Source: Spizellomyces punctatus DAOM BR117
Lineage: Eukaryota
NCBI GenBank assembly: GCA_000182565.2
Contig: KQ257451.1
Length of the DNA: 64,000 bases
Direction: 5' to 3' (one strand)
The position numbers and the translations under genes were made by a program. This document shows, in pieces, positions 5,804-61,900 of the stretch (within the stretch, counting starts at the first letter, position 1; every line of letters starts with the position of its first letter). The notes under the pieces were generated by a model. The model did no database searches. It had not been told where the DNA came from and was given only the letters and a program-made list of their open reading frames with translations.

Positions 5804-6102
5804 TGTAAGTGAACTAATCTGGTTGTCTCTTTTTGCAATGAACAGAGGCTGGTCGTTCGAAAACCAGCGACAAACCATGTCGCCTTGTTCCAATTGCTGA
5901 TCGGTATGTCCGAAGGCACGGACACTATTCACGTGACTTACATTAATTCGCCAGATCGAATGCCCAAAGATCTGATTGTCGCTATGGCGAAGGTGGCACA
6001 GCTGATCCCCGAAACGTGGACTGTGGGCGATCTTCGCCAGAGACCATCCCAATTAGCCATTGAATCGCGGCCCTTTGCCTTGGATAAGCGCTCGTCCTAA
6101 CC

Positions 6103-11126
<5,024 letters not shown>

Positions 11127-19460: not shown

Positions 19461-20012
19461 CACGGTGAACAGGTACAAATATATTGATGTTTGTAGGGTT
19501 GCACGTAGTGGTGGTTACATATTTTGTACATAACATAAGGACATGCAAATGATTGCTTTTTTCTGGGACAATCGTATATGGCTGTTTTGGAGTAAGTAGA
19601 GATAATCCAAGCGCAGACATTTCCAGAAAGGTTGTACTGTACTGCGCGGATACGCGTGTCCGCCTGAGGATCGCAAAGGATCTCATCCGTTTCCAATACC
19701 GGATGAGGGTGGTGGTCGATCCAAACCGCGGTATTTTTGTACGCGGCGGAGGGTCTTTTTCAGGGGACTCTCGGAGCAATCCCGAATTGGCGGGAAAAAG
19801 AAGCTTAAAGTTCAAAGCGCAGCGACACATGTGAATTCGAACACTACGCCCGTGGCTTAAAAACTCCGACGCGCGTTTTCAGTCTGGGATTATAATCGAC
19901 TGGAGCCTTTTGGACGGGATCTCAGCGACACCTCATAACATGAGCCTGGAGAGTCAACACTGCCAGCGGGAGACTTCCTGCAAATACTCACCTCTTCATC
20001 AAAGTTGCAACA

Positions 20013-34302: not shown

Positions 34303-34428
34303 NNNNNNNNNNNNNNNNNNNNNNNNNNNNNNNNNNNNNNNNNNNNNNNNNNNNNNNNNNNNNNNNNNNNNNNNNNNNNNNNNNNNNNNNNNNNNNNNNN
34401 NNNNNNNNNNNNNNNNNNNNNNNNNNNN
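34303..34428. other. Assembly gap (126 N)
   Basis: Run of N. Confidence 1.
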
Positions 34429-38513: not shown

Positions 38514-40097
38514 TCATCCGTATTCCAATATGAATGGGGTTCTTGATAGGGCCGAGCGGGGGCGGGGCGGGAGGTAGAGCGTGGGGGGGTGGTTGTTGTT
38601 GTGTGCGGGTCGGCCGCGAGAGGGATCCCGACGTTGTCGGTGTTCATGGCGGTCAACAGAGCGCTCACGGGAGCGTTCAACAGAGCGGGAGGGTCGTTCC
38701 ACACTCTGCTCAGCGTGATAATCAGCGTAACGCTCTGGATGCCCAACATTCCTCAACGCCTCCAACCACTTGACCATATCCTCCCGACCACTCAACATGA
38801 CCCTCCACACCCGCTCCACTTTGGTCACTGGAACAAACACGCCATCTCCCAACGTCACTCGGCCCGAGACGTCTAATACCCAGACGCCCTTTTCGGATAC
38901 CCTTGTTCCACCCGGCGTAACGTCCAAGACAATCGAGGGAAGTTCTGATGAGTGGGGGGTTTTAAAGAGGTAGAGTTTGGGAGGGACGAGGACGGCGTAG
39001 CGGGATTTCCAGGGTTTAAAGAGCGAAGACGATTGTTTTTGGACGGGGCCGTGATGGGCGTTGGGAAACGTGGAGAGCGTGCCGAGGGTTTTAGGGGGCG
39101 AAAAGGGCGAGGATGAGACGGTGCTGCTGTGGACACTGGAGCGAGAAGAAGAGTGAGCGGCTGACGAGGACGGGCGGGAGGAGGAAGACAGGGAGATGGA
39201 GGCCCGGGACGCGGAGCGGGGGGGACGGCTCAAATCAAAGGATTTGGAGAGGCGGGACGTGCGAGAAGAAGAGGAGGAGGAAGAGTGGGTTTGGTGAGAG
39301 GCTCTGACTGTGTCAAACGAGGGTGTGCGCATGTGTGTCCAGCCCGCATTGCTGACGCGAACGAGGGCATCCCGGGAGGATCGACGAGCGTGGGCGTCCT
39401 GTCCCGTCGAGTCTCTTGAAACAGAGTCTCTCGACACCGAGTCTCTTGCTGACCTGGGCTCGCCATTGTTCGAGTAGGCCGCTCTCCCATTACCCTCCTT
39501 TTCATCCTTGTCATCGTCACGGAGCTCGTCCATGCAATCTTCGAGCTCATTCAAGAGACGATCGACGGTCCTCAGGAGGGTAGAGTGCTTGCCCTTTTGC
39601 GGATACCCATCGACAAAACCCGAATCGGAGCGAGCATAGGCCTGTTGTTGTTGTTCAACAAGCGTATTGTCTTGTGCATGGTCACCCATTGTCAAGGGCA
39701 TTCTTGTGTGTATGGCAGGACGATCAGGGCCGTGCGAATCAATGGCAAGCGTTGATGATGATGATGATGATGGGCGGGAGTAGCGGGCCTGTGATTTGCG
39801 GTATGGACGAGGATGATGGTGAGGCAGAGATCCTGTCAAGTGATAAAGATGAGGAGGATCGTGTGAGGAGGGTGTCGGGGATGGCAAGGTCCCTGTTGCG
39901 CTTGTGGTGGTGGTGGTGGGTGGGTGAGCCAAAGTCGTGGAGTGATAATAATGAGGATGAGGAGGAGGATAATGAGGGTGCAAGTGATGAGAATGCCAAG
40001 CAGTAGGAAGAGTGCGAGTGGACTCTGTGGGAGGGGGAGATGTTGTTGTTGGTAAATGTCCCGTTCTAGCAAACGAGCCTTGAAGTGTGTGAGACAT
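38514..40097 (-). CDS. Intronless PH-domain protein (paralogue A)
   Basis: His/Ser low-complexity regions flank the PH motif HGPVQKQ..KPWKSRYAVL..KLYLFK..EDMVKWLEALR. Start placed at MSHTLQ. Confidence 0.75.
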   Translation of the reverse strand: MSHTLQGSFARTGHLPTTTSPPPTESTRTLPTAWHSHHLHPHYPPPHPHYYHSTTLAHPPTTTTTSATGTLPSPTPSSHDPPHLYHLTGSLPHHHPRPYRKSQARYSRPSSSSSSTLAIDSHGPDRPAIHTRMPLTMGDHAQDNTLVEQQQQAYARSDSGFVDGYPQKGKHSTLLRTVDRLLNELEDCMDELRDDDKDEKEGNGRAAYSNNGEPRSARDSVSRDSVSRDSTGQDAHARRSSRDALVRVSNAGWTHMRTPSFDTVRASHQTHSSSSSSSRTSRLSKSFDLSRPPRSASRASISLSSSSRPSSSAAHSSSRSSVHSSTVSSSPFSPPKTLGTLSTFPNAHHGPVQKQSSSLFKPWKSRYAVLVPPKLYLFKTPHSSELPSIVLDVTPGGTRVSEKGVWVLDVSGRVTLGDGVFVPVTKVERVWRVMLSGREDMVKWLEALRNVGHPERYADYHAEQSVERPSRSVERSRERSVDRHEHRQRRDPSRGRPAHNNNHPPTLYLPPRPRSALSRTPFILEYG

Positions 40098-40271
40098 TTG
40101 CCTGTGTGTGTGTGTAGTGCTGTGCAAAAAACTATATAAAAAAACCAAGAAAACCAAAAAGGTATACTTGCCAAGCAGCAAAGCCCAACAACAAACAACA
40201 CGGAGGGAGGGAAGGGAGGCGGGAGGAGAGGAGGAGAGGGAGGAGGAATGGCAAGAAACACGGCAGAAACA

Positions 40272-40725
40272 ACACACACACACACACACACACACACGAG
40301 TCCAAAAGCATTAAAGTAGAAAAGTGTGAAATTTTCCATAAACAAAAAGACTACTAGTTGGTAAGACAACCTAAAGAGAAAACAAAAGAGAATGGGCGCG
40401 AGAACAAACCGCGCGATGAAAATTCAAAACTAGAAATTCTCACTTTTCTCCCAATGGGGATCTCAATGGGAATGATAATAAAAAACATTGTTGTTGAGAA
40501 TAAAAGGCATGGGAAAGAGTAAGAGAGAGAGATTCAAACATGAACTCGATCACTCTCATTCAAACACAAGAGAGAGTAGAGAGAGAGAGAGAGATTACAT
40601 ACAAGTGAGAGAGAAATAAAACAAGAGAGAAATTCACATAGAGATATCACATGATCTATATATACACTCTTGTAAGAGAAAGAGCATTTCATTCTCACAC
40701 ACACACACACACACACACTTGGCCA

Positions 40726-40757
<32 letters not shown>
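40272..40757. repeat. Cluster of (AC)n, (GA)n and (TC)n microsatellites between the two PH genes
   Basis: AC run 40272-40297, GA run ~40578-40592, CA run 40696-40718, TC run 40732-40757. Confidence 0.9.
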
Positions 40758-40763
<6 letters not shown>

Positions 40764-41106
40764 TACAAGCGATTGTCCCCAATAGTCAACACTCTCCCAC
40801 ACTCACTATATCTAATATAACCTAAATGGGATAAATAAAAGCCTCTCTTAATTCGCTTCATGATCATTTCATTTACTATATTAGGCAAGTTATATTTCAC
40901 ACTTGAACAAGAGAGAGATAGAGATGAGAGAGGCACACACTGATCACACACTTGTTACTGTACTCGCATTGCACACTTGCTGGAAGGAGAGGAGAGGAGG
41001 CGTTTCTCTCTCTGCGCTTTTTCTTTTTTTTCTTCTTCTTGTTTCTTATCTCTCGTGATTGCCGCGATATCGATTTTACATTATTTATTTCTTTTTTTTT
41101 ATATTC

Positions 41107-42582
41107 ATGTCTTTGTCTTTAGTAGAGGGATCGTCGTCTTTAGAACGCACATTGTCCTCCTCATCACCGTTGGCACGCACACGATCGCAATCGCATCCTA
41201 CTACTATGCCTAGTACAATGTATCAACAGTATCCACACAACGACGACGACAATGATGACCTCGTAGACGACTATCAGGAGGACGATCCCGACGCCCACTT
41301 TGCGTATCTAAAGGATGTACTCGCTGGAACGATTGATCCCCCCGTCGATACGCACTGGATGGAAAAGAGCCATGCCATGCACTCGGTCGATGTCCTCTTG
41401 GAACAGATTGATTCTGCTATTCGCGATTTGAATACAGCCATGGACGATGGAGAGGAACAACAGGAAGATGACGACGACGAGTTGGAGAGGAGATTGACGG
41501 CCACTTCCACGCGCTCCGCTCCTCGCCCTTTTCCGCATCAGCGCTCTCGGCACGTTTCCGGAGAGGCCGCTGTGGAAGGAGCTGAGCGCACGGGATCCGT
41601 AACGATTTGGGACCACAAACGAGCTCACTCGGCCCCCGCTCCTGCTCCCGCTCCTCGTCTCGTCGCCGCCGAGCCAAACACTGTCGATTCCATTGCATCA
41701 ACAACATCACCATTATCGTCCTTGTCGTCATTATCATCATCTGCCGATCCTCTCATCTTGCATGCAGGCTACCTCCGAAAACTCACCCACTCCCGGCCGC
41801 TAGGCTCAAAAACATACCGCCCCCGCTTCCTCGTCCTCACATCCTCCCATCTCTACCTCTTTCGCTCCTCCAACCCCCAAGAAGCCTCCATCACCGCTCT
41901 CCCCATCACTCCCACAACAGCCGCCTACGTCTCGGAATCGGGACTCTGGGTCCTCCATGTCCAGTCGCAGGGCATGGACGAGTCTGGGGCATTCGTTACC
42001 CGAAATTGGTCCTTGCAATGTGCAGACAAGGAGGAAATGGTTGGGTGGTTGGCAGCATTGCGGACGGCCATTGAACGGCGGCGCATGTCGCTCAAGGGCC
42101 GTAGTGACAAGCTACCGGGACTAAATGTCTTGTCGCAGCATGGCCGTGGCATCCTCTTGCAAGAATTGTCGCATCATACGTCGTCCTCGACGCGGCCCGT
42201 GGCTGCGTTTGGACAACCTGCCACCTTGTTTGGATCCGGGTACGGACAAACCGGGTACGGGGGACCGCCGACCACGCCCGGATCCAACCCAGACCTCTCT
42301 CCCGCCCTCGCCATCCTCGAGGGCCTCGAACGTCTCCACTCGCCCACCTCCCCAACCACCACCAACAGCACCGAACCACGCGACTACTTTACCATCCCCA
42401 TCACCACCCAACCCTCCACATCCTCATCGCGCGACGATGCTTCCATCAACTCGAGCGACACACCCACCGAAACGAAAAAGGAGAGAAAGGCCCGAGAAAA
42501 GATGGAAAAGAAGGAAAAGCTCAAGCTCAAGAAAAAGGATCAAGGGCTATCCTTTGGTGCGGCCATGAGTATGGTGATTTGA
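41107..42582 (+). CDS. Intronless PH-domain protein (paralogue B)
   Basis: HAGYLRKL..KTYRPRFLVLTSSHLYLFRS..EEMVGWLAALR, with a basic C-terminus. The start could be at a downstream Met. Confidence 0.8.
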   Translation: MSLSLVEGSSSLERTLSSSSPLARTRSQSHPTTMPSTMYQQYPHNDDDNDDLVDDYQEDDPDAHFAYLKDVLAGTIDPPVDTHWMEKSHAMHSVDVLLEQIDSAIRDLNTAMDDGEEQQEDDDDELERRLTATSTRSAPRPFPHQRSRHVSGEAAVEGAERTGSVTIWDHKRAHSAPAPAPAPRLVAAEPNTVDSIASTTSPLSSLSSLSSSADPLILHAGYLRKLTHSRPLGSKTYRPRFLVLTSSHLYLFRSSNPQEASITALPITPTTAAYVSESGLWVLHVQSQGMDESGAFVTRNWSLQCADKEEMVGWLAALRTAIERRRMSLKGRSDKLPGLNVLSQHGRGILLQELSHHTSSSTRPVAAFGQPATLFGSGYGQTGYGGPPTTPGSNPDLSPALAILEGLERLHSPTSPTTTNSTEPRDYFTIPITTQPSTSSSRDDASINSSDTPTETKKERKAREKMEKKEKLKLKKKDQGLSFGAAMSMVI

Positions 42583-42985: not shown

Positions 42986-43327
42986 CACATGCGTGTGTGT
43001 GTGTGCAAGCTATAGGATGGTGAAGAGGGGAAAACAATGTACAGTATGCAATGTATGTGTTTTGAATGGGTTTTATAGATTTTTTTTTTTTAATGTTGAT
43101 CATTATTTGAATTGTAATTGTCGTTTTTTATTTGATGTTTCAATGTTTTTATAGAGTGTGTGTCGTCCAGTACATAGGCACACCAAAGAAAAAGAGAGAC
43201 GATAGAATGACTAAAAGATGTTTATGAATGGACAAACGGATATATGGCACTACTAAATGCTAACATGTAAAAACAAAACCCCAATACAAGACGCTATATA
43301 CATCTCCTCCCTATATCACACAAACAT

Positions 43328-46300
43328 TCACTCTTTGGACGACGCCATAAAATGCTTCAAAAGCTCTTTCCCATACAACCTCCCAACCTCCCCAGCCGTC
43401 CTAGGACACTCTACAAACCCCTCCCCAAGCACCCTCCTAGAATTCTCCCCCAAAAACCTCGGCAAAACCACCCTCGTCTGTCTCACATGCCTCACATAGT
43501 GGGCAAGAGGCACCATTGGATTCCGGACATTGTTCTGAACTTGGCGCTCAAATTCCTTTTGCCATTCTTCCAAAGGTATGATTTTGCAAGGGGGTACACC
43601 GTCTGGGATCATGGATGGGAGATCCGCCCATGTGAACCTGTTCATGAAAGCTCAAGACAACGACACCCATAATGACAAATAAACAAGAACAAAAAAAAAA
43701 AAACTCACATTTCGGGATTCGTAATGTGAAAAACGGGGACATGCCATGCTTGTTGACAAGCCCCCAATGCAACAATCAATCCTGCACACCAATCCACGGG
43801 TGTCACCGAGAAATGAAAGGGGACATTGGGTGCCATGCCCATTTCGCAAACAGCCAAGACAAACCGCCAGACAAAACTATCCAAAGAAAGAACTAATAAC
43901 CAAAATCAATACCACAAATAAAAGCCATTTCAACGGAATATGTTAAAACGTTTACCTCCAGTTTGACTACTCCCACCCAACGTCGCAGGTCGAATCACCA
44001 TGACGGGTACACCCCTCCCCCTCGCCCTCTCACAAAGCACTTCGGCAATCCATTTGGATTGAGCGTACCCCGTAAATGTGCTTTGATCGAGGTCATGGAT
44101 GTTGTGGGATTCCGAAATGGTTTCCAGGCCCGAAAAGGCAAAGAGCTAATAGTTATTAGTGTTTAGTTTAAAAAGTGTTTTTTTTTTTTATTGTGTTTTG
44201 AGAAGAGTGAGAGACAACGTACGTTTGTGGATGAAATGTATTGAACGGCTTTAAGGCGATATGTCGTCGCAAGACACAAAATTTCTTTGGTGCTGGTACT
44301 GTTGACAGAGAGACTTGCATACGGTTTCAAATGATCCGCCTGTTAAAACACAAAATGAATCAATGATTGTTATTTTCTCGGCAATTACGCATTTTCCAAA
44401 GAAACTTACCACACCCGCAGCATGCACGATCCATTCCACACTCTGAACAGCCCATTCCCAATCCTCAAAACTCATTCCAAGCCGTTCACGACAACACTCT
44501 CCCAAAATAATCTTTATCCGATCCTTCCACTCGGGTTTCCACACCAGAGCTTGTTCACAAGCGTTTTGGATTCGGTCTAGACCTTGTTGGGGTGTCGATG
44601 CACGAACGAGACATGCGATCGTGGCTTTTGGGAATCGATCAAAGAGGGCAGAGAGGATGGAACGACCCAGGAAGCCTGTTGCGCCTGTTAGGAAAATGGT
44701 GGGTTCCGTCGTGTGTATCCCCTTATAAATGAGATCTCCTGCGGAAATGGATGTATCGTCCAAAGCGTCGACTTGAGAAATGCAATTAAAGGTCGTATCA
44801 GTTATCAAAGCAAGTTTCCGTTCATCAGATCGTTGCGAATCGACACCGTTCAATGTGGTCGCTTTCTTGGCCGCAGCAACATTGGCTAAATCCCTCAACG
44901 CCCGAACCGATACCGGTCCCAATAACTGAAGCTGCGATACATGAACGCCCAACTCTGATTCCAAAACCCCACTCAACCGACTCGCAGATAAAGAATCCAA
45001 CCCAAGTGAACTGAGATGAACCGTATCCTCCACAGTCGATACATCCACATTCAGGATTTTTGTAATGAGCTTTCCAACCGGATCCTCGGTTGTAGATTCT
45101 TTATCATGGTCCTTGTCATCTACATGCGTCACGAGATGTGCGATACTCGTTTGATTCGCTTGTGATATCCCATAACTAATCTTCCAATTCAACTCGGGGA
45201 TCACATACGGGACATGTTGTGAACGTCCCGTTAGCGTTCTTGCCACTGCTTCCTCAATTTGTTGGCACAGTTCACTCGATGTACACGCCAACGCGTCCAG
45301 GACTTGAAGTGCCGCACTGTTTTTCGAGGCACGTAATGCGGCAAAGACGCCAATATCGGATATGGCGGGTACGGCAAAGGAAATGACGTTAGAGTAATCA
45401 CGAGCGTATCGGTCAAAAAAGCTTTGAGCAGCGTTATAATTCGATTGACCGGGATTAAAAAACAAGGCAGCCGTTGACGAAAACAGGAATAGGAAATCCA
45501 ATTGGTGGATTGGCACGACGTTTTCGAGCGTTGCGAGTGCCCCGATTTTGGATTTGTTGACTGTTTCGAACTTTTCCGGTGTCATGTTTACAAAGAGGTC
45601 GTCGGCCAATACCACCGACATGAGAAAAATCCCACCAAGAGGTCCCACTGCATTCGCGGCTTCCACGACTTTTTTCATGGCGTGTTCGTCGCATGCATCC
45701 GCAGCCATGAATCGAACGTTAGCACCCCTATAGTGCTCATCCCCAATAAAACTCTCAATCGTCAACCGATCGACTCGATCAACTACACCCCTCCGCCCCG
45801 TTAAAATCACATTCCGCGCCCCATTCGCAAACAGACTGACAGCAAGTCGCGGCCCAAGACCTCCACATCCACCCACCAGTATATACGATTTCCGAGGATC
45901 GAATAACGGACGTGGTCGATACATCCTCATCACACCTGGTTGCCCACTCAAATCCACGACAATTTTCCCGATATGTTTCCCGGATTCCATGAGTCGGTAT
46001 GCCTCTTTCAACCCCTCAACCCCACTAAACCCGTGACAATAGAGCAATTTAAATGGCGTACGATTGTGTTGGGATAGAACGGTATCGAGAAGCTGACTCA
46101 TGGATTCGGGTTGGAATTTACTAAGAGACCCGAGTTCAACCGCAATGTAGGATGTGGCTTTTGCGAAATGGGACATGGAGATGGGTGTACCGGATAATGC
46201 GTCGCGTTTGGAAATGTCAATAAAGCGGCCGAGAGGGGCGAGCATGGCTTTTTTTGAAAGAGGTTGAGGAGAGGTCAAGAAACGACTAAGCGAAACTGAT

Positions 46301-49300
46301 GGAAAAAAACTTACCACACCCGGCTTGTAAAGCCGTCCCTTGCAACGAATTCAGCACAACATCAAACCCCATTCGCCCTCGTTTCGCCAACCACGCTTGC
46401 CCCTCCCTCACCCACGTCTCTGTAGACCTCGACGTACTCATGGCCTCAAACTCGACTCCCAACTCGTCATGAAGAAACTCTCGTTTCTCTTTTGACCCGA
46501 CCGTACAAAACACTTGACAACCCACTCGCCTCGCTACTTGAATAGCAGATACCCCAACACCCCCCGCCGCCGAATGAATTAAAATCGTTTCACCGGGTCG
46601 TATACGAGCTTTTTCCATTAGGCAATACCAAACCGTTCCATACGCAATCGGGACCGCCGAAGCTTCCATCATGGTCATCGTATCTGGTATTTTCGAGACC
46701 AACCACTCTAAAGTAACGGCTACGGATCCTTCTCGGGATAGCCCCGTGGTACCCATGACACGATCCCCAACAACGACTCGCGAAACACTCGACCCAACAC
46801 TGCTCACCACCCCCGCGAATTCGGATAACCGGTCGGTATCAGGTAACAACCCCGAAGCCGATAACACGTTTTTGAAATTCAATGCAACGGCTTGAACACG
46901 GATTTGAACGTCATGTTCATGTAAGGGTGGTGGGAAATACCGATGAGGAACCAACGCATTGATCCCCATTTCACCCGATTTTAAATCCAGTACCCACTCT
47001 CCACTCGTTTTTTCGTTCGTTAATGACGGAACACGCACAATTCTACGTGAATACACGTTTGATCCGCGTATATACGTAAAAGGCTCCACTCCACCCCGTT
47101 TCTCAACATCCATTAAACAGTCCAACCAGTCTTGCTTTATATTCGCAGGTGTGTTGGGTTCGAATATGATTGCGTAGCAAGTGAGGTTTGGGTACTCGTT
47201 TGTTAGTGTTGCTGAGAGGGCTGTTCCCATGGCTCCTGTCGGTGTATCCTCTGTTAGGATCCAGAGCGTGCCGGTTGGGTTTTGGCCGAGGTCTTTTATA
47301 GCGTGCACTAGGTCCATTTCGGTTCCGGGTGTATAGTGGTATACGAGTGTTGTTGGGGTGAGTAAATAGAGGGGTGGGTGTGGAGTTTCAATGTGTGGAC
47401 GCTTTCTGGGTGCCATCCACAATTGTGCGTTTTCGTTTTCTTTTGATGTTGGCGTTCCGTTCATCTTTGTCAAGTCTCCTTGGCCGAAACCACCAAGCTC
47501 ATGTCCTTTATCATCCAGAGTTGACCCGTTCGTTCCATTCATCTTGAACCCTTCCACAACACCATTCTCATGTGAAGACCCATCCGAAGAAAGTGTCTCA
47601 AAATCACTCCCATCCGACTCGGATTCCACATTGGGTACCTCTCTATACCCAAAACAAGAACTCGTCGGATCCCGTTGTGCGGAAACAAAGAGGTGTGGAC
47701 CGACGGATTCGAGAATGTGGGGATGGATAAAGGGGGTTGTTGTGAGGGTTGTTTTGTAGTGGGTTGGAGTGTGGAGAGGGGTTGGTGTGTTGATGAACAT
47801 TTCGGCTTAAGAAAGAAAGAGAGATTTAGGGGGTGAAATGTGATTAAAAGATATGAAAGAAGGAGAAACGGTACCGAGTAAGGGAAACCGAGTCTTGAGC
47901 GTCGTGGGATTCAAATCGGACGTAAAGATGTATCCACCGGGTACCTTTCCAAAATATTCAAGAAAACAGTTAGGAAAACAAGCACGAATATGAATTGAAC
48001 AATAAACTTACCAATAACCCAAGAACAACACCAAACCCCTCACCATCCAAAAACTTTAACACATCCACCCCAACCACCACATCAAAACTCGCCACCCGAC
48101 ACCTCGACTCACCCTCCACACCCGCCCTCACATCAATCCTATCCATCCCATTGGACCGTCCGAGATTCACACCAACGATATCAAAATGCATGTGTGGATG
48201 CGCGGTGATCATGTCGGACCAGTTTAGACGGCGTTTATGGATGTAGAGGTCCAAAATGCGCAAAACGCGGCGGTTGTGGGTTTTTGAAATGAGGTTGTGA
48301 AGGGTTTTTTTGTAGTGGGTTTCGAGGGGGGTGATGAATACTGGGATTTGATCTTGAGAAAAGAAAATGTAAAGTATGTGAGTTAAGAATACGCCAGAAA
48401 AATAAAAGTAAAAAAAAAAAAAAAAAAAACTTACATATCCGATCCAAAAGCTTCTCCTTGCCCAACCCCTCCTTTTTAACTCTCTCCAAAACCTCCCTAA
48501 CGGCCTCCTCCCCCTCTCTTCCATGTCCACGCACATCCATCCTCTTATCATCCCACGAACCATCCACTTTAGCACTCAAAAACCGTGGCTCCCACACAGC
48601 CGTATAAGCATCCTGAACTTTTCTTGCTTTACGAACCATATGCGAGATCTTGCCTTCAACGACCACAAGCATTTCCAAAGTATCCGCGTCGAATAGGTAG
48701 ATATTTTGGATGGAGATCCGGTTCGTGTTACTGATATCCTTTGAGTGGATCAATATGCGTTTTGCGGATCGGATTTGGTCGTTGGTGGATGTTAGGGATA
48801 TATAGTTGATTTCGGAGGGCATGTAGGTGTCGACGAGGGTTCGGGTGCCGGTAAATGGGAGCTACCATCATAAACAGGTGGAGTTGTCAGTTGCAAAACC
48901 CAAATATTTTGGACGTGGAAAAAGGAAACGTACCGACATGCCCCATCCCGTTTGACACGCACAATCAAGTATCGCCGGATGAAGTACCATCCCCTTTGCA
49001 TGCGTATTCCAAAGCTCATCCGACACCTCCACAAAAGCAATAAAATCCTTCTCCCGGGTAGAGGACCCCCGAATCTCGGTAATCATGGCAAAAACTCCCG
49101 AATACTCTGCACCCGTCCCAGCAATAATGGAATAAAACCTCTGCCCATCCATAACGAGATCAAAATCGGTCATGAAATCTTGTCCGAGATGTTCGAGCGC
49201 GGTTTGAGGTGTATGCACTGATTCCATGACAAACTGTCCTGTTGCATGGACGGTATCCAACACCACACCCGAATCATTCACGACATTTTTGGACGAACTG

Positions 49301-52300
49301 CAGAATTCCCATTCGTTGTTGATACCCGTTTCACGGAACCCGACGTATTTGGGGGGATCATGCTCGGAAAGCATCAACGCGCGTTGAATACGGACGTTAC
49401 GGAGTGTTCGGGCGCCGTGTTCGAGAGCGGCTTCAATGTACCCCGTCCCAGGGAAAATAACGGCTTTTGAAATGGTGTGGCCTGTTACCCATGGGTGGGT
49501 TTGGGGGCTCATGCGAAAGAGGGGGGCGCAGAGGGGTTTGGGAGGGGGTCGAGTGCGTCTGTAGGTGCTTATAGGACATTCTTTATGTTCGACAATCTTT
49601 AATGGATGAGTGTTTTGAGTGACTTTTAGAGTGTATGCGTTTTTTGGTTTACTTACTGTTTTTTGGAATGGGTAGCTGACGGGTTTCTTTAATAGCATGT
49701 CGTGGCCCATTGGGACGTCGTATCCAGCGAGTCCAGTCAGTACACGCAAATTAATATTGCGCACACCGGCGACGAGGAGTTTCCCAACTATTGTATGTGT
49801 GCATATATTCAATCAGAAAAAATAAAATCAACTCTTGGTTCGCAAAAACTTGAACTCACCTGTGTCCAAAAACTGCGTATCCTCCACAGGATCATTCACA
49901 CCTTGTCCAGTTTTCGGATTCGGCCTCCGAGCACACGCAGCCACCACCGCAGGTTGCACGTTCACGGACGCAGCAATTTCCCCAATATACCCTTGCAAAA
50001 CGGGATGCGGCGCCATTTCAATCACACACAATGATGAAGCGTTACCTTCCTCTTTGTGCTCTTCAAACAGGGCTTTGATCGCATTAGCAAATAAAACGGG
50101 TTTACGGATATTATCCCAGCAGTAGGCCGTGTCGAGGGGTTGGTTCTTTGGATGGAGCCTGCCGTGAACGGTGGAAATGAAACGTGTTGTAGGGACATTG
50201 CGTGAGCTGTTGAGGACCGGTAAGACGGCTTTTTGGAAGGCTGCAGAGCAAATGTCGACTAGCGGGGAGTGGTAGGCACCACCCACTCGGAGTTGTCGTG
50301 CGAAAATGCCTTGGGATTCGGCTTGTTGGACGAGCTGAGGTGGAGTAATAGACAATAACAAGATATGAGTGGGTTTTGGATACAAGGCATACGAAAAGCA
50401 AATAGATTCACTTGTTTTTGTTTATCTCTTACCTTGACAATCAAATCCTCATTCCCCGATACTGAAACAGCCTTGACAGAGTTCACAGCACTAATCCACA
50501 ACCCTCGAACACCACCTCCATCCCGGTCCCCACTCAAAATTTTTTCAATCATCTCATTGGCTTGAACTTCATCACATCCCAAAGCCGCCATACCGCCTTG
50601 TGAATTCTCCACCATTTTCAACGCCTTGGCACGCGCTACTGCTAAATGCACCGCTTTGTGACGATTGATTGCACCGGACGCATACATGGCCGCGATTTCG
50701 CCGACACTGTGTCCCAATACCACGGAGGCTGCGACATTTAAGCTTTTCCAGAGGTCGTAGAGGGCGATTTGGAAGATGACGATCGAGAGAACTACGGCTT
50801 CAACAGGCCACGATGCGTCAGGCCCAGTGGGGAGGGTACACTCGTACGAATCAAACATGCCGTATTTTTTGATAAAGGAGCCAAAACCTATTGACTGCAG
50901 TACACCATCGGAAGCAAGAACCGAATCACGAAATGCTTTGAACCGGTAAAGGAATCTGCGGCCCATTTGGGGGTACTGAGGACCTTGCCCGGAGAACACA
51001 AACGCAATGAACGGGTCGCTCGTAAATAACGGTGCGGCGGGTTTTGAGAATGCTTGTTCAAGTTGACTAGTACCGGATGCAGGGATGACGGCGTACGAAA
51101 GGAACGGGTGCCCACGAGCTCGGTCTCCGAATACCCTAGAAATCACCACTCGCTCACGCGGGTCCGTTGCTTCCTCCAGAAACTCGCAAACATTTTCCAC
51201 AACTCTTCCCACCGACCGCGCAGAAAGTGCACCCACTGCAATCAGGATAGAATCCTTATCATCGATATCCATAATCGGAAACCGATCACCACCATGCGGC
51301 ATACGCTCCAAAACAGCATGCGCATTCGCACCACCAAACCCAAACGAACTAACACTCGCAACATACATCCCATCTTGAGTTGTTTTCCATTTCGGAATCG
51401 GCTCTGGGTCAGTTTGAACCCGGATGCGAAAATCGGACCAGTGGATCTGGGGATTCGGTGTGCTGAAATGGATCCCCGGGAGAATCACGCCCGAGTCGAG
51501 GATCAGTGCGGCTTTGATGAGACCTACGAGTCCTGAGGCGGTTTCCAAATGACCCACGTTGGTTTTTACAGAGCCGATACTGCGAGACTTGATCAACACA
51601 TTGCGAACTTGGGGATATGTAGAAAAGGAAACTCACCTTAGGATATCCTCTTTGGGTCGATTTTGTGAAAACACTTGTCCGAGTGTGTTGACTTCAATCG
51701 GGTCACCAACGGGGGTACCCGTTCCATGGCACTCTACGAAAAAGGCATCGGTAGGATCACGGCCTGCATCCTTGTACCTATATCCATATCAAAAATAACT
51801 CGTATCAGATCAAAGAAACCAAACTCATCATGAATAAAAGTGCATTACATACGCTTGAAGTGTCGCATCCATCTGCATCTTGGCATCCGGCATCGTCAAA
51901 CTCAATCCCCTCCCATTAGCATTAACAGCACTCCCAGTAAGAACCGCATAAACATGATCACCCTCCTTCATCGCCGCATCCAGTCGTTTGAGAATAACCA
52001 CCACACAACCCTCACCACGTACATAACCATCCGCAGCTGCATCGAACGCATGACAACATCCAGTTGGGGAGAGGGTCCCGAGTTTACTGAATCCTTGCGA
52101 TGCCTGTGGGGTGAGCATGATGCTGATACCGGCTACTACGGCTTGGTCACAGTCTCCAGCGAAAATGGCGTTCCGTGCAGTATGCATCGCTGAGAGACCA
52201 CCTGAACACGCAGTGTCGACAAAGATGGAGGGTCCACGGAGGTCAAAGATGAAGGAAACGCGGTTCGGTTGCATAGACAGGGCGGTGCCGGTTGCTTTGT

Positions 52301-52952
52301 TCATAAAACGAAAAGAAGTGAGCAAGATAGTTTCGCCAGAGTACGAAAAAAAAGAATACATGTACTTACAAGTATAATGAGACAAATCATACTCGTCCGA
52401 CTGGATACTACGCCCCTCAAAAGATCCAGCAACAAACACGCCAGTCTTTGTACCCCTGTACTTGACACCAGCGTCTTCAAATGCCTGAAGCGTCGTCTGA
52501 AGCAGCATATACTGTAGGAAACGTGAGAAAAGGAAGAATGGATTGTAAGCGGGTGACGAAGGCTTTTTGGAATTTCGCAATGGTTTGTATTGCACCTGGT
52601 GGACATCGAGTTCCCTGGCTTCGTTGGGCGAGACTCCAAAATCTAAAGCTGTGTAGCAACAGGGAAGAAAAAGTATTAGATTCCAAATACATAGTGTACA
52701 TAAAAAGAGGAATTAGGATTCCGTACCATCAAATTCCCGATACTCATCAAGAAAGCCAGCCAAATCCGTGACAATCTTTGCCGGTTCTTTACCAGGACCA
52801 GTATACGTCTCCGCATTCCATCTATCAGCAGGCACACGCGAGATCCCAGACCGCTTCGAATGAAGGAGGTTGTAGAATTCCTGTTTGTTGTTGGCGCCGG
52901 GAAGACGGAGGCCGATGCCGATGATGGCGAGGTGTCGGTCGTTGGACGACAT
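43328..52952 (-). CDS. Iterative highly reducing type I PKS: KS-AT-DH-(pseudo-MT)-ER-KR-ACP-R (multi-exon)
   Basis: [140 protein letters not shown]. Confidence 0.95.
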
Positions 52953-54868: not shown

Positions 54869-57216
54869 TTACTCAATTTCATCCTGTACATATTTTACAA
54901 TTTTTTCTACATCGCTCGCAAAGGCTTGTCGAGTTTGTGCAAGGAGGTTGTAAAGTGCGTTTGTTTCTTGGGTGTGTTGTGTACGTGTCGACTCGAGGGT
55001 TGCTGTGGTTTATAGAAGTTTCAGTTTAGAAGATGACTAAAGAGACGTCGTTTACGTACTCTTAAGTCCCTCGTTTTCATCACGAAGAAGATCGAGCTTG
55101 GAAGCCAAACGATCCATCTGGTAATGAGTGTGAGCAAACAAACCCGGACTGCGTGCTTTTTTCAATATACGTACGTCCGTCTCCTCAGTCTTTTTTTGTT
55201 CGCCATTCTTGCGGTTCGCTCGTTTCAATTGTGCTTCTAAATAACCCATTATTACCATCCACAAAGTCAACTCCATATATCGTCACGTACCCATTCGACA
55301 CATTTTCTCTTCCACATGCGCCAATCGGGCCTTTGTATCCTCTTGTAAGGTTTTTAATTGTTTATTTTCAGCAGAGAGGTTTTTGAGGGTTGCTTGGAGG
55401 CTTGTGATGGTGATATCGTGGACTGCGTGTATATGTCAGTCCGCATTTCTCGCGGTTATGGGGCATATATACCTACCGACTGGGGATGCCGCGCTGTGTT
55501 GGGATGTTGGTATGGGGGTGGTGAGAATGGCAGATGAAGCGTCCCGTAGGTTATTGATCTGTTCAGCTTGTTCTCGAATGCGTTTGTCCTATTCTACGCG
55601 TAAATAGAGGAATTTAGGCTGATTGCAATGGGACTAGAGCCACCTTGGCTTCAATAACAGATAAAAGTTCTTGATCTGGCTGTTGGTCTCGTTTGGCCTA
55701 AGTGCGTTCAAAGCGATTGAGTAAAAGCGGAAAAGTGATTAAAACCAACCAACGTACCTGGAGACTCGCTACTTTGGTTTGAAGCACTGAGACGAGTTTG
55801 GAGGATGATGATGTTTTCTGTAGGAGGGTGGATAGCGTAGTCTTGAGGGTTTGGTTTGCTTTTTCGAGTGTTCTACAAGGTACTTCATATTGAATACGCC
55901 TTCTTCCAAAATACTTTTGAAAAAAAAACACAAACCGGTTCCTAGCTAGTAATGCCTCCACTTTTTTGACAAGGCTCGCATGCTCTCCTCGGAGGGTTTC
56001 CAATTCCTTTTGAACTTTGTCCTGGGCTGCACGGCGGGATGTTTCGAGTTTGCGAATGTTGTTGGTAGTGGGTTGGGGTGGCGGTGTTGTATGGGATGTT
56101 TCCGAAAGTTTGGCCTAGGAGTTTTTGTATTGCTCCGTCATTTTGCATGTTACTGTGCGGGTGTAAATAAGTTTTTCGCGTACCTTCAGAACCAGAATCT
56201 GCTGTGCACGTCCCTTCCATCCACTCCCCTCCTCAAGAACCTAATGTACGCCAAAGTCTCAGCTCATCGGGTCATTGCAATCGTACAGAAATGCTTTGCT
56301 TGTATACCTTGTTCAACGGCACACTGTCGCCAACCTCCTGCTTCAATGCCTTGGTGAGCAGACGATTCTCAGATCGGAGGTTTTGATTTTGGGTTCGTTC
56401 TTCTTCGAGCTTACGGGTTGTCTACCAAAAAAAGTGGTAAGGTCATGTAGCGATATGTTCCTTAAAGGCACTAACGGCTCACCTGTGACAATTTATCTTT
56501 CAATGCCTTGATTTGCATATTTGACCTCTCTGTGTCGTCGTTTACTGGTTTGACAACGTTCGGCGTGGCATCTTCTTCTAGTTGCTGTTATGATCTTAGC
56601 TCTTGGATACAGTTGCAAGTGTGAGAATAAACGTACCTTGATTCTAGCATTGAGAGCAGAAGTGCGGGAACGTTCCCTTTCGAGTGCAAGGTTCAATCCC
56701 CGTACCTTATGGCATAATTGAGCATGAAGATCCTTTAACCAATCTAATCTGGCCAACCTACTTTTTTGGCCAGGGCAATGATCCGTGTTTCACGGGTTGT
56801 GGATCGAGCTGTATCGAGGAGTGTGTCGTCGTGATCTAGTTTAAGAGGGGTTGGTTTGTCTGTTGTGATATCTATGACAGGAACAGCGTACCCTACCGAC
56901 ACTTTCACCAAGCACTTTGACTCTCTCGCTTGCAGAGTCATTGTGCATAAAATGGTGGAGGTTGAGGATCTGATATGTTCATGTGGGTAAGCGTTCGGGT
57001 TCACGATGACCGTGATGGAACTCACATCGTGATGTGCTTTAGGAGGACAAACGCTGCGTGCAAGATGTCGCTCTAAGAATCCTTATGCATTAAACCATAG
57101 ACCAAAAATAATTGTACCTCCTGCCACCTCGTGTTGGCTTCAGTCACATCCAAAAACCCGAGAATCAGCACCTCATGATTCGTTGTTGGTTTAACGATAG
57201 CACCTCACCTTGCCAT
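54869..57216 (-). CDS. CCDC13: CCDC13-like coiled-coil centriolar/ciliary protein (multi-exon; start uncertain)
   Basis: Spliced RIIALAKK|VRGLNLALERERSR, KALKQEVGDSVPLNK|VLEEGSGWKGRAQQILVLK, and the C-terminus ENEGLK..LYNLLAQTRQAF. These parallel remembered CCDC13 motifs (KIVELSKK; REVGED..WRGRAQQILVL). Confidence 0.75.
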
Positions 57217-58913
57217 TCTTGAAGGATGCTAACTGGGAAGAAACTACCTACACGCATAATCACTTCACCAGTCAGTATTCCAGTCACAAATCCAATGAAG
57301 TCACAGAAATACTCTTACCCATCGTTCATCCACATCTTCACCCGCCTATCTCAAACAATCAGCCTATATCCACAGTGTAAGAAACCCAAAGCACACAACC
57401 TCAATGCCCTCAGCAGCTACCGCAAATCCCTCTACATCGGTATCAGTGTCGGAAGATACGGCAGATGGAATAGACGATGGGAGGTGGGAAACAGAGCGTT
57501 GGGCAATCATGGTGAGTAAAATATCGCAGCAGCATCAGAGCTGCTTAACGCGTCTGATCGTGATTACGTAATATGGATATGCGGGGTAGATTCCATTATC
57601 GAATATTTACTTCTTGCCCTTTTATGCTATTTCGAAGTCGGCATCCGTGTCGCGCTGTTACCCAAGTATGTAGGACGTCAAATGTATGGAGCTACACAGC
57701 ATCTCAAACAGAATTTGTACGGTGGCTGGCAGAGAATATTGAAAATGCGTCGGTCGTGCGCTACATGCAAAAATAATTCAATCGTTCAGTAATAGGTATT
57801 TGTCCACTATATCACTGATAGCTTTCGTCACATTCGAGAGAGTCTCAAAATGTAGTTATATTTCAAGAAGGCTTAGCTGAACGAATAATGAAAACTAAAT
57901 CTGCTATTTTAGGTTGATATCGAAAATTCAGGGAAGAACAAAACAAGTTAGCGATAAGAGCAGCGACAGAATGACAGCTCGCACACGAGTAATATCTCTA
58001 TATCCTCATTTCAGCAAATATGGAATCGAAATTTGTGAGTTCAACTGAAGGATGGCGAAACTCTTATTAGTCGGTCACTCTCCGCGTCGCGGAGATCGCT
58101 TGGGTAAGCCAGTTTGATCACTTGTCCACCCCATAATTCTTGGTGAGCGAGATCGTGCTCAACGTACAAATAGTTCCCCCAACTTAAGATTGTTTGCAGG
58201 CATGGGACACAATCACGGGCAAAAAACGAGCTTCCTCTCTACCAATTTTGCAGACCCCCACTTGGATTCAGCGGCCGTATTGCTTGGACTGAAAATCGCC
58301 AAATTTTTGAAGCGTACTTGGAAAGCTTTGAGTGGTCATAGTGACAATCGACTCAGATTTTGGTCTTGGATAACGGACAACCGGTTCACCAGCCGGATAC
58401 CCCAATAATCACGCAGGTCAGAATCAAAACGCAACAAGCATTAACCGATATTGCAGCACGAGGTAGGTCATTTTGATCGTGGCCGTCCGGACTCTGTAGT
58501 GTTATCTATATTCTATAGACTTGAGCGACATTGACTCACGTATTCTCCATACCCTACTAATTTGTACATCAGGATCGCATTTCCTATCCTATATCAATGC
58601 CTGCACATAACAAATAATAAAGATTCACATCGCTCGCATATCTATTATCCTACAACCTGTTCATCTTGATAAACATATTATTAATAGCGTTTGTTCATTC
58701 CCTGGTGTAGTAGCTAGTGCCAGTTTCTGTCACCTCTACACTATTATTAATATCGTTTGAGAAACTCTCCCCAGATGTAAATCTTTAGATGAACGCGTGC
58801 AAAAATTAAAAGATGACTAATTAGAAATTTTGAACTATCCTCACTATTCAAAAAGCCCAAGGACACTCGAACATCCATAGTGCAGGCCGCGTTGTTTCAT
58901 TGCAGCTGTTGAC

Positions 58914-61900
58914 ATGTCCAACGCATCGTGGTGCGATCCTGAATATGGCTGGCCTGCGGATGGGTTGGAGAGGTTACCCCCCTGCCAGGAAGAAACGTAT
59001 GTGTATCCCGACGAGTCACTATTGGTATTTTGTTTTACTCAATCTGCGAATAGTCTTCGACAGATTCCTTGGGCATTATTGTTTTTATTTGGAGTTCCGA
59101 GACTTGTCACGCTTTTGAGAGGTCCGTCTCCAGCTGTTCCACGCGGGACATTGTATTGGGGGAAATTGGTATGAAGAAAACCGCTGAGACTCTTGCAAGA
59201 AGGCCTTGCTCAAAAAAGAACGTTATTTAGACCCTGGCGTTCGTGCTACTAGTACTCCACGTTGGAGAATACCTCAACGCATACCTACAGGGATCGCTCT
59301 GCGATGGTCCGGAATATCTGTGCGCCCGCGTATCGTTTTGGTTGGGTGCTGCGGCTTTGTTGTTTGCAATTGTCTTGCACCATGAAGAACATTTGCGGTC
59401 GAGAGTGCCTTCGACAGTTTTGCTATTTTTCTGGCTCTTTACGTGAGGATTCGGTGTTCATTGTAGTGGCCGTGGATGCAGTTGCGGTAGACTTATTACT
59501 CTTACAGCGTCGTGGCAGGGATCGTCAAATTGAGAACCTTGGTGTTGGTTGGAGCATACGCACGAGATCAGGTCGGATTTGCCCTCTATGTGAGCTTTCT
59601 GGGATTAGCGATCTTTCTGTTTGGATTGGAGAACGTGCCCAAACCGGGGACGTATTATAGCAGTCTTGATGAGGACGTGGTATGCCTGTACATTTCCTGC
59701 TCATGAGGCGCTTTCAACTATTAACGTTTTTAAAGTCTGCCAGTCCGGAAGAAACCGCCAATATCTTTTCGCGGTTGACGTTCTTCTGGATGGATCCCCT
59801 GATGAAGCTTGGGTACCGAAAGAATCTGGACATGAATGATCTTTGGTCTGTTTCTCTTGAGCACGAACAACATTCTCCTTCATCGCTCATGTATATTGCA
59901 GGAATCTGAAGCGAAGTGATCGTTCAGCCGTCACCGGTGGCATGTTTCAAGCAGCCTGGGAGGAAGAATTGATGAAAAAGAGGTATGCGGCGCACATTGT
60001 GAAGAAGGGTCAACCGTTTGCTGATGTTCGTTTCAGGCCGTCTTTACTGAGAGCGTGCGTCAAGACATATGGACTTCCATTTGGATCCGCCGCGATTTTC
60101 AAAGCTGCACAGGACATCATGGCGTTTATTCAGCCGGTAGGGTTTATCTGTTGAGGTTTCTTTAAATGCGTAATGATCCTGATGGACGTCCGATGTACAG
60201 ATTTTTTTAAAGCAGCTGGTATGGACAAGATTGTTCGATGTGTTGTTGCTGGCGTCACTGACTGTGCGGAATAGATGGATTTTGCTAGGAGTTGGTCCGA
60301 TGGCGATTCTACCCAGGAACGACAACCAATCAACCGTGGTTTCATGATTGCCGGTAGGCCCGTTGCACACGCTTCGAACGCACGAGTACGGTGCTAATGC
60401 ACTCTCCGTTAGGATTGATGCTTCTGACGGCTGTTACGCAAACCATTATGCTGCACCAGTATTTTCACATTTGTTTAGTGACTGGGATGCGAGTGCGTTG
60501 CGCTGGCTTGTGCTTTGCTGGACATACAATTGAGGCTCATGTTTTTTTCGTAGATGCGCTCAGCCATGGTTACCGCCGTTTACCGCAAATCCCTTGTTCT
60601 GTCAAGTGTTGCAAGACAAAGTTCCACCGTGGGTGAGATTGTGAATCTGCAGAGTGTTGATGCGTCTGTGAGTCTTCGGTTGTGCACTTTAAAATGTTCT
60701 GGGCACCAACTCACTTCGGGATATGATTTGATTTGTCGGTTAGCGCTTGAGCGATCTTTGGTAGGTTACTGACCGAATGCAGCTTTATGAGTGCTATTTT
60801 GGCTGATTCCGGGGTTGATTGTGGAAGCTCGTATTTGCACATCATGGTTGGTACCAGTTGCGTTCATTCTTGTGTCGTGTAGCTGCGTTTGCTGACTTCC
60901 TCCTGTTTCCTTGCCTCTCAGTGGTCAGGTAACGAATTTGTTCACTATACCGTGCCAAAGATGAGGCGGACTCATCGTGCTTGTAGGTCCTTTCCAAATT
61001 GCCATGGCGATCTTTTTCCTGTACCAGACACTCGGGCCATCTATCTTCGCCGGGGTAGCTGTGATGGTACGTCGTGTTACCGTCGTTTACATGGCTTGTG
61101 TGGTGTTGCTCAGTTACGTCTTTGCAGATTCTCATGGTCCCCGTTAACGCCTACTTGGCCACGAGATCGCGCACGTTAAACAAAGCTCAAATGGCGAACA
61201 AAGACACGAGGACAAAAATGATGGTAGGGCACGGTATATCGTCTCTATCCGAGTGACGCCTTCTCATGTTGATTTTCAGGATGAGTTACTCAATGGAATC
61301 AAAGTGATAAAACTTTACGCATGGGAGCGCCCCTTTCTGAAAAAAATCTACAAAGCGCGTGAAGCAGAGTTGGATACGTTGAAGAAGCTGGGATATCTAT
61401 CTGCATTCCAGAGGTTCGCACCGCACCCAGTACCCTGATTCTTCAACTTTAAAACTGATTGTATTCATATAGTTTCACATGGGCGTGCACACCCTTCCTC
61501 GTCTCCTTTGTTTCCTTCGCGGTCTATACGTTAATATCCGATGAACCCCTGACATCGGGCAAAGTATTTGTATGCATTTCACTCTTCAATCTTCTCCAGT
61601 TCCCTTTGGCCGTTTTCCCGAGTGTCATATCAGCTGTGATTGAGGCTTCAGTGTCATTCAACAGGCTGTACAAGTTTTTGAGGAATGAGGTGAGATTGTG
61701 ATCGGCTTCGTCTGCTGGATATGGACATTGGAGTCACACAGTTTTCTTTTGATAGGAGCTCGACAGGAACGCAGTAATTTACGAAACAGTGGTTTTTCAG
61801 CCCACATCTGGAAAGGCACAGCGGGTGGTGGTAGAGAATGCTACATTCCAGTGGAGTAAACAGGGAACACCTGTTCTCGAAGACATCTCATTCCGGGTTA

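Follow-up and report, generated by a model that had tools for sequence, protein, structure and literature searches.

What does a free-living chytrid make with a large reducing polyketide synthase (PKS) that stands alone in its genome, and where did the gene come from? The gene lies on the minus strand at positions 43328..52952 of a 64,000-nucleotide stretch of Spizellomyces punctatus DAOM BR117 (contig KQ257451.1, assembly GCA_000182565.2), referred to below as the window. A first, sequence-only reading of this DNA had proposed a stand-alone, heavily intronised highly reducing PKS (HR-PKS) with a terminal reductase in a probable chytrid, making a long-chain alcohol or aldehyde. Here, the locus is found to be an intact, stand-alone, one-gene PKS with a terminal reductase, whose nearest relatives outside Spizellomyces are, judged from sequence comparison, the PKSs of Malassezia and Exobasidium, ahead of those of other chytrids. 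The kinship of the chytrid and Malassezia enzymes is the main new point, together with a corrected gene model. We consider it probable (roughly 65%) that the enzyme is a fully reducing iterative type I PKS resembling animal fatty acid synthase (FAS), in which reductive release would yield a long unbranched aldehyde or alcohol as a specialised lipid.

Gene model

The chytrid host is supported by a public S. punctatus protein (SPPG_08922, here P0190) that is 100% identical over exon 6. The corrected model has 18 exons and 17 GT-AG introns, with an ATG at 52952 and a stop at 43328, and its summed coding length of 8388 nucleotides (nt) corresponds to 2795 amino acids (aa), which bears out the heavy intronisation claimed earlier. 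All exons are on the minus strand. Exons 1 to 6 lie at 52952-52727, 52648-52596, 52511-52370, 52294-51853, 51777-51637 and 51579-50433, exons 7 to 12 at 50334-49860, 49787-49657, 49596-48934, 48861-48435, 48352-48012 and 47944-47875, and exons 13 to 18 at 47805-46315, 46247-44410, 44339-44223, 44145-43956, 43892-43709 and 43637-43328. The introns are short (57-98 nt, median 72), all have GT-AG ends, and have a GC content of 0.22-0.44, compared with 0.43-0.54 for the exons. None of the 18 exons contains an internal stop in its computed phase, the sole stop being the one that closes exon 18. Fourteen of the 17 introns are impossible to read through because of a stop or a frameshift; introns 2, 3 and 8 can be read through and were called from the alignment to relatives.

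Exon order is kept for all 18 exons relative to a 2799-aa protein of Spizellomyces sp. 'palustris' (P0004; 68-97% identity), and exons also align in order to the Malassezia sympodialis PKS (18 of 18), an Exobasidium protein (17 of 18) and a Cladochytrium protein (15 of 18). As two Malassezia-type loci (L025 and L026) carry the PKS as one intronless open reading frame (ORF), support for the exon model does not come from splice prediction alone.

The public protein P0190 is only 1181 aa long. Its sequence retains intron 8, enters intron 9 (48862..48933, minus strand; GTACGT...TAG, 72 nt with two in-frame stops) and stops there, and it ends after the dehydratase because the model reads into this intron. 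The reducing and release half of the enzyme is therefore hidden in the public model. In the available text of PMC7466969, where S. punctatus is the sole chytrid, the chytrid reducing PKS is given as ketosynthase (KS), acyltransferase (AT) and dehydratase (DH), without PP, a description that agrees with the truncated public model.

The same two observations could be read as a split or decayed locus, with a 1181-aa KS-AT-DH protein and a downstream half that is separate or silent. Such a reading would also fit the lack of spliced reads in one raw RNA run, of which about 6/100 was read: no splice joints were found over the PKS, and coding-bin depth was 0-1.3. However, P0190 ends inside a stretch of 72 nt bounded like a canonical intron, and neither P0004 nor the Malassezia ORFs, which are intronless, have an insert at the intron 9 site, where their reading frames continue. 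Furthermore, the 1650 codons downstream of this site are free of stops and keep every motif. A split or decayed locus thus has a very small chance of being correct. In the same RNA run, the 3' bin reached a depth of 7 on the PKS strand, and six RNA molecules end at 43133. Both are compatible with a transcript end, and 43133..43327 (minus strand) is a likely 3' untranslated region, weakly assigned because an A-rich tract is close by. Two contig sets carry the PKS introns and are in this respect DNA-like, and a third set gave no match.

Domains and catalytic residues

The Pfam order along the minus strand is KS, KS-C, AT, DH, ER, KR, PP-binding and NAD_binding_4. The catalytic motifs of the KS, AT, DH, enoyl reductase (ER), ketoreductase (KR), acyl carrier protein (ACP) and thioester reductase (R) all fall in exons of the window and are invariant or nearly so across an alignment of 11 family rows. 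The domains named by the sequence-only reading were therefore all recovered, while a decayed C-methyltransferase (MT) had been overlooked. The KS with its C-terminal extension (51087..52952, minus strand, as are all the domains that follow) has Cys170 in DTACS (52217), His305 (51734) and His345 (51554), a triad invariant in all 11 rows. The AT (49936..51002) carries Ser626 in GHSVG (50714) and His739 in AYHS (50277), a motif which we take to be of the malonyl type. The DH (48700..49515, lower limit approximate) has His959 (49488) and Asp1130 (48969).

Between the DH and the ER lies the pseudo-MT (47875..48600, limits approximate). A profile of the DH-ER region matches the intact MT of a Rhizoclosmatium protein (P0347) with an i-E of 5e-13. 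Where P0347 has the glycine-rich S-adenosylmethionine (SAM) motif LEVGAGTGG, the window protein reads LDLYIHKRR (48254), and where P0347 has DVLHAT it reads DVLK (48065), the His being gone. As the SAM motif and this His have been lost, an unbranched chain would be expected.

The cis ER (45955..46918) has the NADPH motif HSAAGGVG (46576) and is among the best-kept domains of the clade, P0004 being 57-63% identical to the Malassezia and Exobasidium-group rows in this domain. The KR (45397..45888) has GGCGGLG (45873), LADD (45612) and a catalytic Tyr2187. The usual KR motif is YxxxN, whereas YxxxQ is found in the window and in all 11 family rows; because it is common to all of them, we regard it as a family trait and not as decay. 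The ACP (44896..45072) carries Ser2335 in GLDSL (45003). The R domain (43328..44700) has a Rossmann motif, of the GxxGxxG pattern, and a Ser2566-Tyr2595-Lys2599 triad, all three residues of which are kept in each of the 11 rows. The two R motifs named earlier were located at 44688-44665 (TGATGFLG) and 44067-44053 (YAQSK), and P0004 clears the cut-off of the TIGR01746 model (257.7 versus 213.35 bits).

Taken together, the gene encodes in a single frame the KS-AT-DH-(MT)-ER-KR-ACP module of an iterative highly reducing type I PKS with its catalytic residues kept, and behind the carrier domain an R domain with a Rossmann motif and a Ser/Thr-Tyr-Lys triad. The KS-AT-DH-pseudoMT-ER-KR-ACP-R architecture is of an already known kind. 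Animal FAS has the same order up to the ACP, including the pseudo-MT and the cis ER, and among solved structures those of animal FAS score best against the whole protein, but it carries a thioesterase (TE) where the chytrid PKS has R and forms its own clade in the KS tree. Traits of ascomycete HR-PKSs were not found: the KS falls apart from the three ascomycete rows sampled, and the active C-methyltransferase that is common, though not universal, there is missing. The betaenone synthase Bet1 is reportedly an ascomycete HR-PKS with a terminal R, an active MT and a need for a trans ER. Dictyostelium and Cryptosporidium also have PKSs ending in R. Toxoplasma TgPKS2, in the available part of its preprint, likewise ends in a thioester reductase of the short-chain dehydrogenase/reductase type; these protist enzymes are outside our trees.

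Relatives in Ustilaginomycotina and other fungi

A search with exon 14 returned 1015 matches, of which the top 27 scored 509-1133 bits and the 28th scored 164. Named among those 27 were one Spizellomyces, seven Malassezia, one Exobasidium and two Cladochytrium proteins, and a second search added two Physocladia proteins and one from Rhizoclosmatium. In an exhaustive search with exon 6, in which members within 50% clusters or below 255 bits could not surface, five representatives among the best 150 of 45,116 reached 45% identity, all of them from chytrids or Ustilaginomycotina. Compared over the whole protein, seven Ustilaginomycotina-type rows share 45-47% identity with P0004, whereas three other chytrid rows share 41-43%. 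A characterised PKS-R orthologue, the check proposed by the first reading, did not turn up in these searches. Metagenome loci were mostly distant PKSs (76 of 78, with 29-41% identity), and ESM Atlas matches were limited to generic KR/ACP clusters. A bacterial origin of the gene was rejected, as in each domain the family matches score far above the bacterial ones.

The PKSs of Malassezia (M. sympodialis CCU99902.1, M. pachydermatis and M. vespertilionis) and of Exobasidium rhododendri (UZJ53113.1) have the same domain order in 2680-2820 aa, and they share with the chytrid PKS the decayed MT, the YxxxQ KR and the R motifs. The two Malassezia-type loci that were read also stand alone, with no ABC-C-type transporter within 8 kb and no tailoring gene. 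They differ from the chytrid locus in being intronless, versus 17 introns, and in their flanking genes, which by eye are NRAMP-like and Nup98-like. No common neighbourhood or intron positions were found between the window and these two loci, nor would any be expected at such a distance. The hosts differ as well, the chytrid keeping a FAS and Malassezia being without one. The PKS of Malassezia japonica (P0026 cluster) groups with Exobasidium and with P0021, P0024 and P0025, apart from the other Malassezia PKSs; there would therefore be two lineages of the PKS gene in Malassezia.

A common PKS core is also found in the chytrids Cladochytrium replicatum (KAI8803849.1, KAI8803284.1), Physocladia obscura (KAJ3125018.1, KAJ3140413.1) and Rhizoclosmatium globosum (ORY49087.1). 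The R-bearing members from Cladochytrium and Physocladia, at 41-43% identity, form a separate branch. The tails of these chytrid enzymes vary: an R domain, an R domain with a sulfotransferase, two nonribosomal peptide synthetase (NRPS) modules with a TE, or a condensation domain in combination with an intact MT. The Physocladia protein P0273 joins a PKS, two NRPS modules and a TE in 4674 aa, and the Rhizoclosmatium protein P0347 is a PKS with an intact MT and a condensation domain at its end. In Physocladia obscura KAJ3125018.1 (P0337), a predicted gene model, a sulfotransferase lies behind the R domain at residues 2780-3047 (PF13469, E 2.7e-26). The product of such a PKS-R-sulfotransferase could be an alkyl sulfate, and the fusion would, if the gene model is right, fit an alcohol as the released product in that member.

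PKSs of Agaricomycetes with an R or TE tail (Sparassis, Obba, Suillus, Marasmius, Mycena) form the next branch out in the KS and KS-AT trees. They are about 30% identical, those scanned have no ER match, and their R domains are placed elsewhere in the R tree. Characterised basidiomycete polyene synthases may belong to this branch.

Phylogeny and origin of the gene

In the KS, KS-AT, ER-KR and R trees alike, in which P0004 and P0190 represent the window protein, the Ustilaginomycotina enzymes fall within the chytrid sequences as sister to Spizellomyces. The trees hold 63 rows for KS (quick search), 25 and 23 for KS-AT, 24 for ER-KR, and 27, 32 and 29 for R. Support for Spizellomyces plus Ustilaginomycotina in the Shimodaira-Hasegawa-like approximate likelihood ratio test (SH-aLRT) was 98 for KS, 98 and 97 for KS-AT, 98 for ER-KR, and 97 and 99 for R, with 100/98 in the third R tree. 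Branching outward are Cladochytrium with Physocladia, then Rhizoclosmatium, then the Agaricomycete PKSs, and beyond the clade lie animal FAS, bacterial rows and the ascomycete HR-PKSs, a small sample of three rows (Botrytis, Elaphomyces, Annulohypoxylon). Dictyostelium and apicomplexan sequences were outside the trees, and rows omitted were Marasmius (KS), frog FAS and P0061 (long branches, set for topology tests) and six rows without R (R set). The window PKS thus shares the architecture of the Malassezia-type PKSs and forms a supported clade with them in independent domains. The sequence-only reading had framed the gene as a chytrid rarity to be set beside Dikarya HR-PKSs, Dictyostelium, apicomplexans and animal FAS, a framing that gives way to the clade with Malassezia and Exobasidium in the KS and KS-AT trees. 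In PMC7466969, as far as its text was available, a chytrid KS had been placed in a 'Fungal (R) clade'.

Alternative topologies were compared by approximately unbiased (AU) tests in IQ-TREE, with fast searches under LG+F+G4 for KS-AT. In this setting, monophyly of the chytrids was rejected at p=0.0007 with 6 rows and at 0.0002 with 7, and monophyly of the basidiomycetes at p=6e-5. For the LG+C20 runs the site profiles were taken from the rival tree, a guide that works in favour of that topology; here the same three constraints gave 0.045, 0.009 and 0.004. For ER-KR, p was 0.042.

Several points count against this placement. With R alone, the AU test rejected neither constraint (0.26 for chytrid monophyly; 0.17), the rejections at 0.042 and 0.045 are borderline, and the Kishino-Hasegawa test (p-KH) rejects neither of the latter. 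The trees were mostly quick searches with few taxa, and the long Rhizoclosmatium branch is unsure. The identity gap between 45-47% and 41-43% is small. Word-based searches, moreover, miss members (one found seven Malassezia-type proteins only), and an absence of the gene from other fungi does not follow from them.

As reconstructed here, the PKS gene tree departs from the species tree, and both transfer and hidden paralogy would account for this. The likeliest history, with about an even chance of being right, is that the gene passed long ago from a chytrid on the Spizellomyces side to an early member of the Ustilaginomycotina. This direction is preferred because PKS tails are diverse among chytrids and the Ustilaginomycotina rows sit inside them; transfer in the opposite direction, from Ustilaginomycotina to a chytrid, is improbable. 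The PKS exons have a GC content of 0.49-0.51 and a GC content at third codon positions (GC3) of 0.48-0.52, within or slightly below the range of four neighbouring genes (0.48-0.63). A signature of recent transfer was looked for in exon GC and GC3 and not found, and with 17 introns and ordinary GC any transfer event would be old.

The same introns and GC, which bear no mark of recent arrival, also suit an ancient duplication after which the gene descended vertically in a few lineages of chytrids and Ustilaginomycotina but was lost many times elsewhere, the Cladochytrium and Physocladia genes being a second paralogue. In the KS and KS-AT trees, one starred branch sets the PKSs of chytrids, Ustilaginomycotina and Agaricomycetes apart from all other rows, so the wider PKS family appears to be old in fungi. 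Paralogues do occur (M. pachydermatis and Cladochytrium have two each, and the M. japonica gene groups with Exobasidium), and the AU results are partly borderline. Against this history, it requires loss in most fungal lineages, and the five representatives with 45% identity over exon 6 among the best 150 are from chytrids and Ustilaginomycotina only. In addition, no genome seen here has both paralogues, and that of S. punctatus has a single such KS. Ancient paralogy, which concerns the history of the gene only, is a serious competitor with somewhat less than an even chance.

Probable reductive release

The R domain has a relative in the host itself, a Lys2-type reductase (L017; best model TIGR03443) whose R shares 39% identity with the R core of P0004. 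The host Lys2-type R and the R of a Neocallimastix NRPS group with the R domains of the PKS family against 19 bacterial R rows (100/96), in an unrooted tree in which these two rows are the only ones to represent other fungal R domains. The underlying R search took proteins >1539 aa and hence no Lys2, the host Lys2-type R being added separately. This grouping suggests that the PKS R domain may have been recruited from a fungal Lys2-type gene. Unlike the PKS, Lys2 (alpha-aminoadipate reductase) is an adenylation-thiolation-reductase enzyme of lysine synthesis, and its reduction stops at the aldehyde. Among solved structures, the N-terminal part of R is matched best by the R domain of the myxobacterial MxaA. 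In the available part of the TgPKS2 preprint, the R triad norm is given as Ser/Thr-Tyr-Lys, and TgTR takes octanoyl-CoA to octanol in a four-electron reduction. The available text of PMC6158276 calls reductive release unusual for fungal HR-PKSs.

If the R domain did not reduce, the chain might instead leave as an acid, via a partner or by cyclisation, and the enzyme would be a second, specialised fatty acid synthase. Two M. pachydermatis members are indeed labelled 'fatty acid synthase' in their source, the Ser of the triad occupies a position at which Thr is reported for bacterial and fungal thioester reductases, and R domains with cyclising release exist, the latter two points according to sources available in part. 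However, the three triad residues do not vary among the 11 family rows, GxxGxxG is kept, and Ser/Thr-Tyr-Lys is the stated triad. Malassezia, moreover, depends on external fatty acids despite having the PKS, which is therefore no source of bulk acid. Non-reductive release is accordingly very unlikely.

Predicted product

Reductive release of a saturated chain, the reading favoured here, would proceed in five steps. A stand-alone phosphopantetheinyl transferase (PPTase) would prime Ser2335 of the ACP; stand-alone Sfp-like PPTase genes are present elsewhere in the genome, on contigs C1 and C5. The AT would load malonyl units, with which the KS would extend an acyl starter repeatedly; the motifs of both domains are in place, and iteration is presumed from the single module. 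KR, DH and the cis ER, whose motifs are likewise present, would bring each round to the methylene level, provided that all three act in every round. C-methyl branches would not be added, given the motif loss in the MT. Finally, R with NAD(P)H would free the aldehyde and probably carry it on to the primary alcohol; the triad is there, and of the two oxidation levels the alcohol is somewhat the more probable. Chain length, degree of reduction and role of the product are inferred. The long-chain alcohol or aldehyde of the first reading therefore stands as the most likely, though inferred, product; the structural or signalling role raised by that reading is conjectural. As the host keeps its own FAS, this product would be a specialised lipid and not bulk fatty acid.

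Some points speak against this assignment. Fungal HR-PKSs often skip reduction steps by programme. The KR has Gln at the usual Asn, the R domain is related to the Lys2-type reductase that halts at the aldehyde, and splice joints were missing from the RNA run. The first of these would lead to a different product: with DH or ER skipped in some rounds, the enzyme would make a partly reduced polyketide aldehyde or alcohol (a polyol, enal or short polyene) that would serve as a secondary metabolite, perhaps exported by an ABC-C transporter. As a rule, fungal HR-PKSs do skip steps in this way, the sister Agaricomycete PKSs are without ER matches, and an ABC-C gene begins about 6 kb upstream of the PKS. 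However, the ER is among the best-kept domains of the clade (57-63%) and its NADPH motif is intact, and there is no tailoring gene at the PKS or beside the two Malassezia-type loci. The transporter is separated from the PKS by a coiled-coil-like gene and has no counterpart within 8 kb at the Malassezia-type loci. A programmed, partly reduced product is thus unlikely.

Genomic setting and lipid genes of the host

Genes scanned around the PKS encode PH-domain proteins, an ABC-C transporter, RNase H, HIT, PPR, myosin, FRG1 and AROM proteins. No tailoring or regulator gene was recognised by Pfam in the window, where 9 of the 23 ORFs scanned have no Pfam match, so that a small partner may hide among them. 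None of the 24 cytochrome P450 matches of the genome is on the PKS contig, in agreement with the stand-alone locus described at first. The ORFs in the 20 kb past the window are, by eye, of the housekeeping type. Directly downstream of the PKS, at 38514-42582, are two divergent PH-domain genes with long low-complexity parts. A coiled-coil-like gene without a clear Pfam family (about 55000-57100, minus strand) lies between the PKS and the intron-rich ABC-C type transporter (about 58900-64000, plus strand). Elsewhere in the window are a pentafunctional AROM gene (6088-11126), plus-strand frames at 19944-21850 with a weak DUF6625 match (E 6e-5), and a run of 126 N at 34303-34428, just ahead of a HIT/DcpS-like frame.

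The FAS of the host is on contig C12, where a Fas1 helical domain (502 bits) is followed on its strand by matches to KS and ACPS. These three lie within about 10 kb (C12:655011-665320) and probably belong to a single fused FAS gene. The only PF08354 match of the genome is on a contig other than that of the PKS, and the PKS locus is without the Fas1/Fas2 domain set of fungal type I FAS. The idea that the PKS substitutes for FAS was ruled out, since the host keeps this normal fungal FAS. The genome has one KS of the PKS type, the others being those of FAS (C12), a mitochondrial FabF (C19) and a marginal match (C7). A second R-ending gene (L019; C24:1-1881, minus strand) has two carrier-like domains followed by a reductase and runs to the contig end.

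Implications for chytrids and Malassezia

According to previous work, M. pachydermatis has a PKS instead of FAS (PMC4611691). In the available text of PMC5603697, the PKS is conserved across Malassezia, is called unique and <32% identical to those of other fungi, and its role is left open; in that of PMC12722467, a part of the PKS in lipid versatility is merely suggested. One KS was counted in M. globosa in the accessible part of PMC9582728. A term search found no mention of the PKS in the main text of PMC4634964 or PMC3560662, and the available parts of PMC13010171, PMC13448219, PMC8106346 and a fungal biosynthetic gene cluster atlas preprint held nothing on this PKS clade. Neither a product of the Malassezia PKS nor a chytrid-Malassezia link was found in the literature searched, which lay outside most subscription journals and supplements.

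The corrected model turns a public KS-AT-DH fragment into a complete synthase with a release domain and alters the account of chytrid PKSs. If the nesting holds, a large biosynthetic gene moved between fungal phyla, an event of a type that would escape screens for bacterial donors, such as the similarity screen of PMC4634964 (available text). A naturally occurring enzyme that resembles FAS and releases by reduction would, in addition, be useful for producing fatty alcohols. More tentatively, and with a good deal less than an even chance, the Malassezia PKS may derive from a Spizellomyces-side gene and work as an animal-FAS-like enzyme with Lys2-type release, supplying very-long-chain alcohols or aldehydes for surface or wall lipid and thus an acyl route in a yeast without FAS. 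Malassezia is the main fungus of human skin and is without FAS, yet it keeps a PKS whose role is open. Finding a full-length orthologue in a free-living chytrid with a FAS of its own separates this PKS from lipid dependency and offers a second handle on its product.

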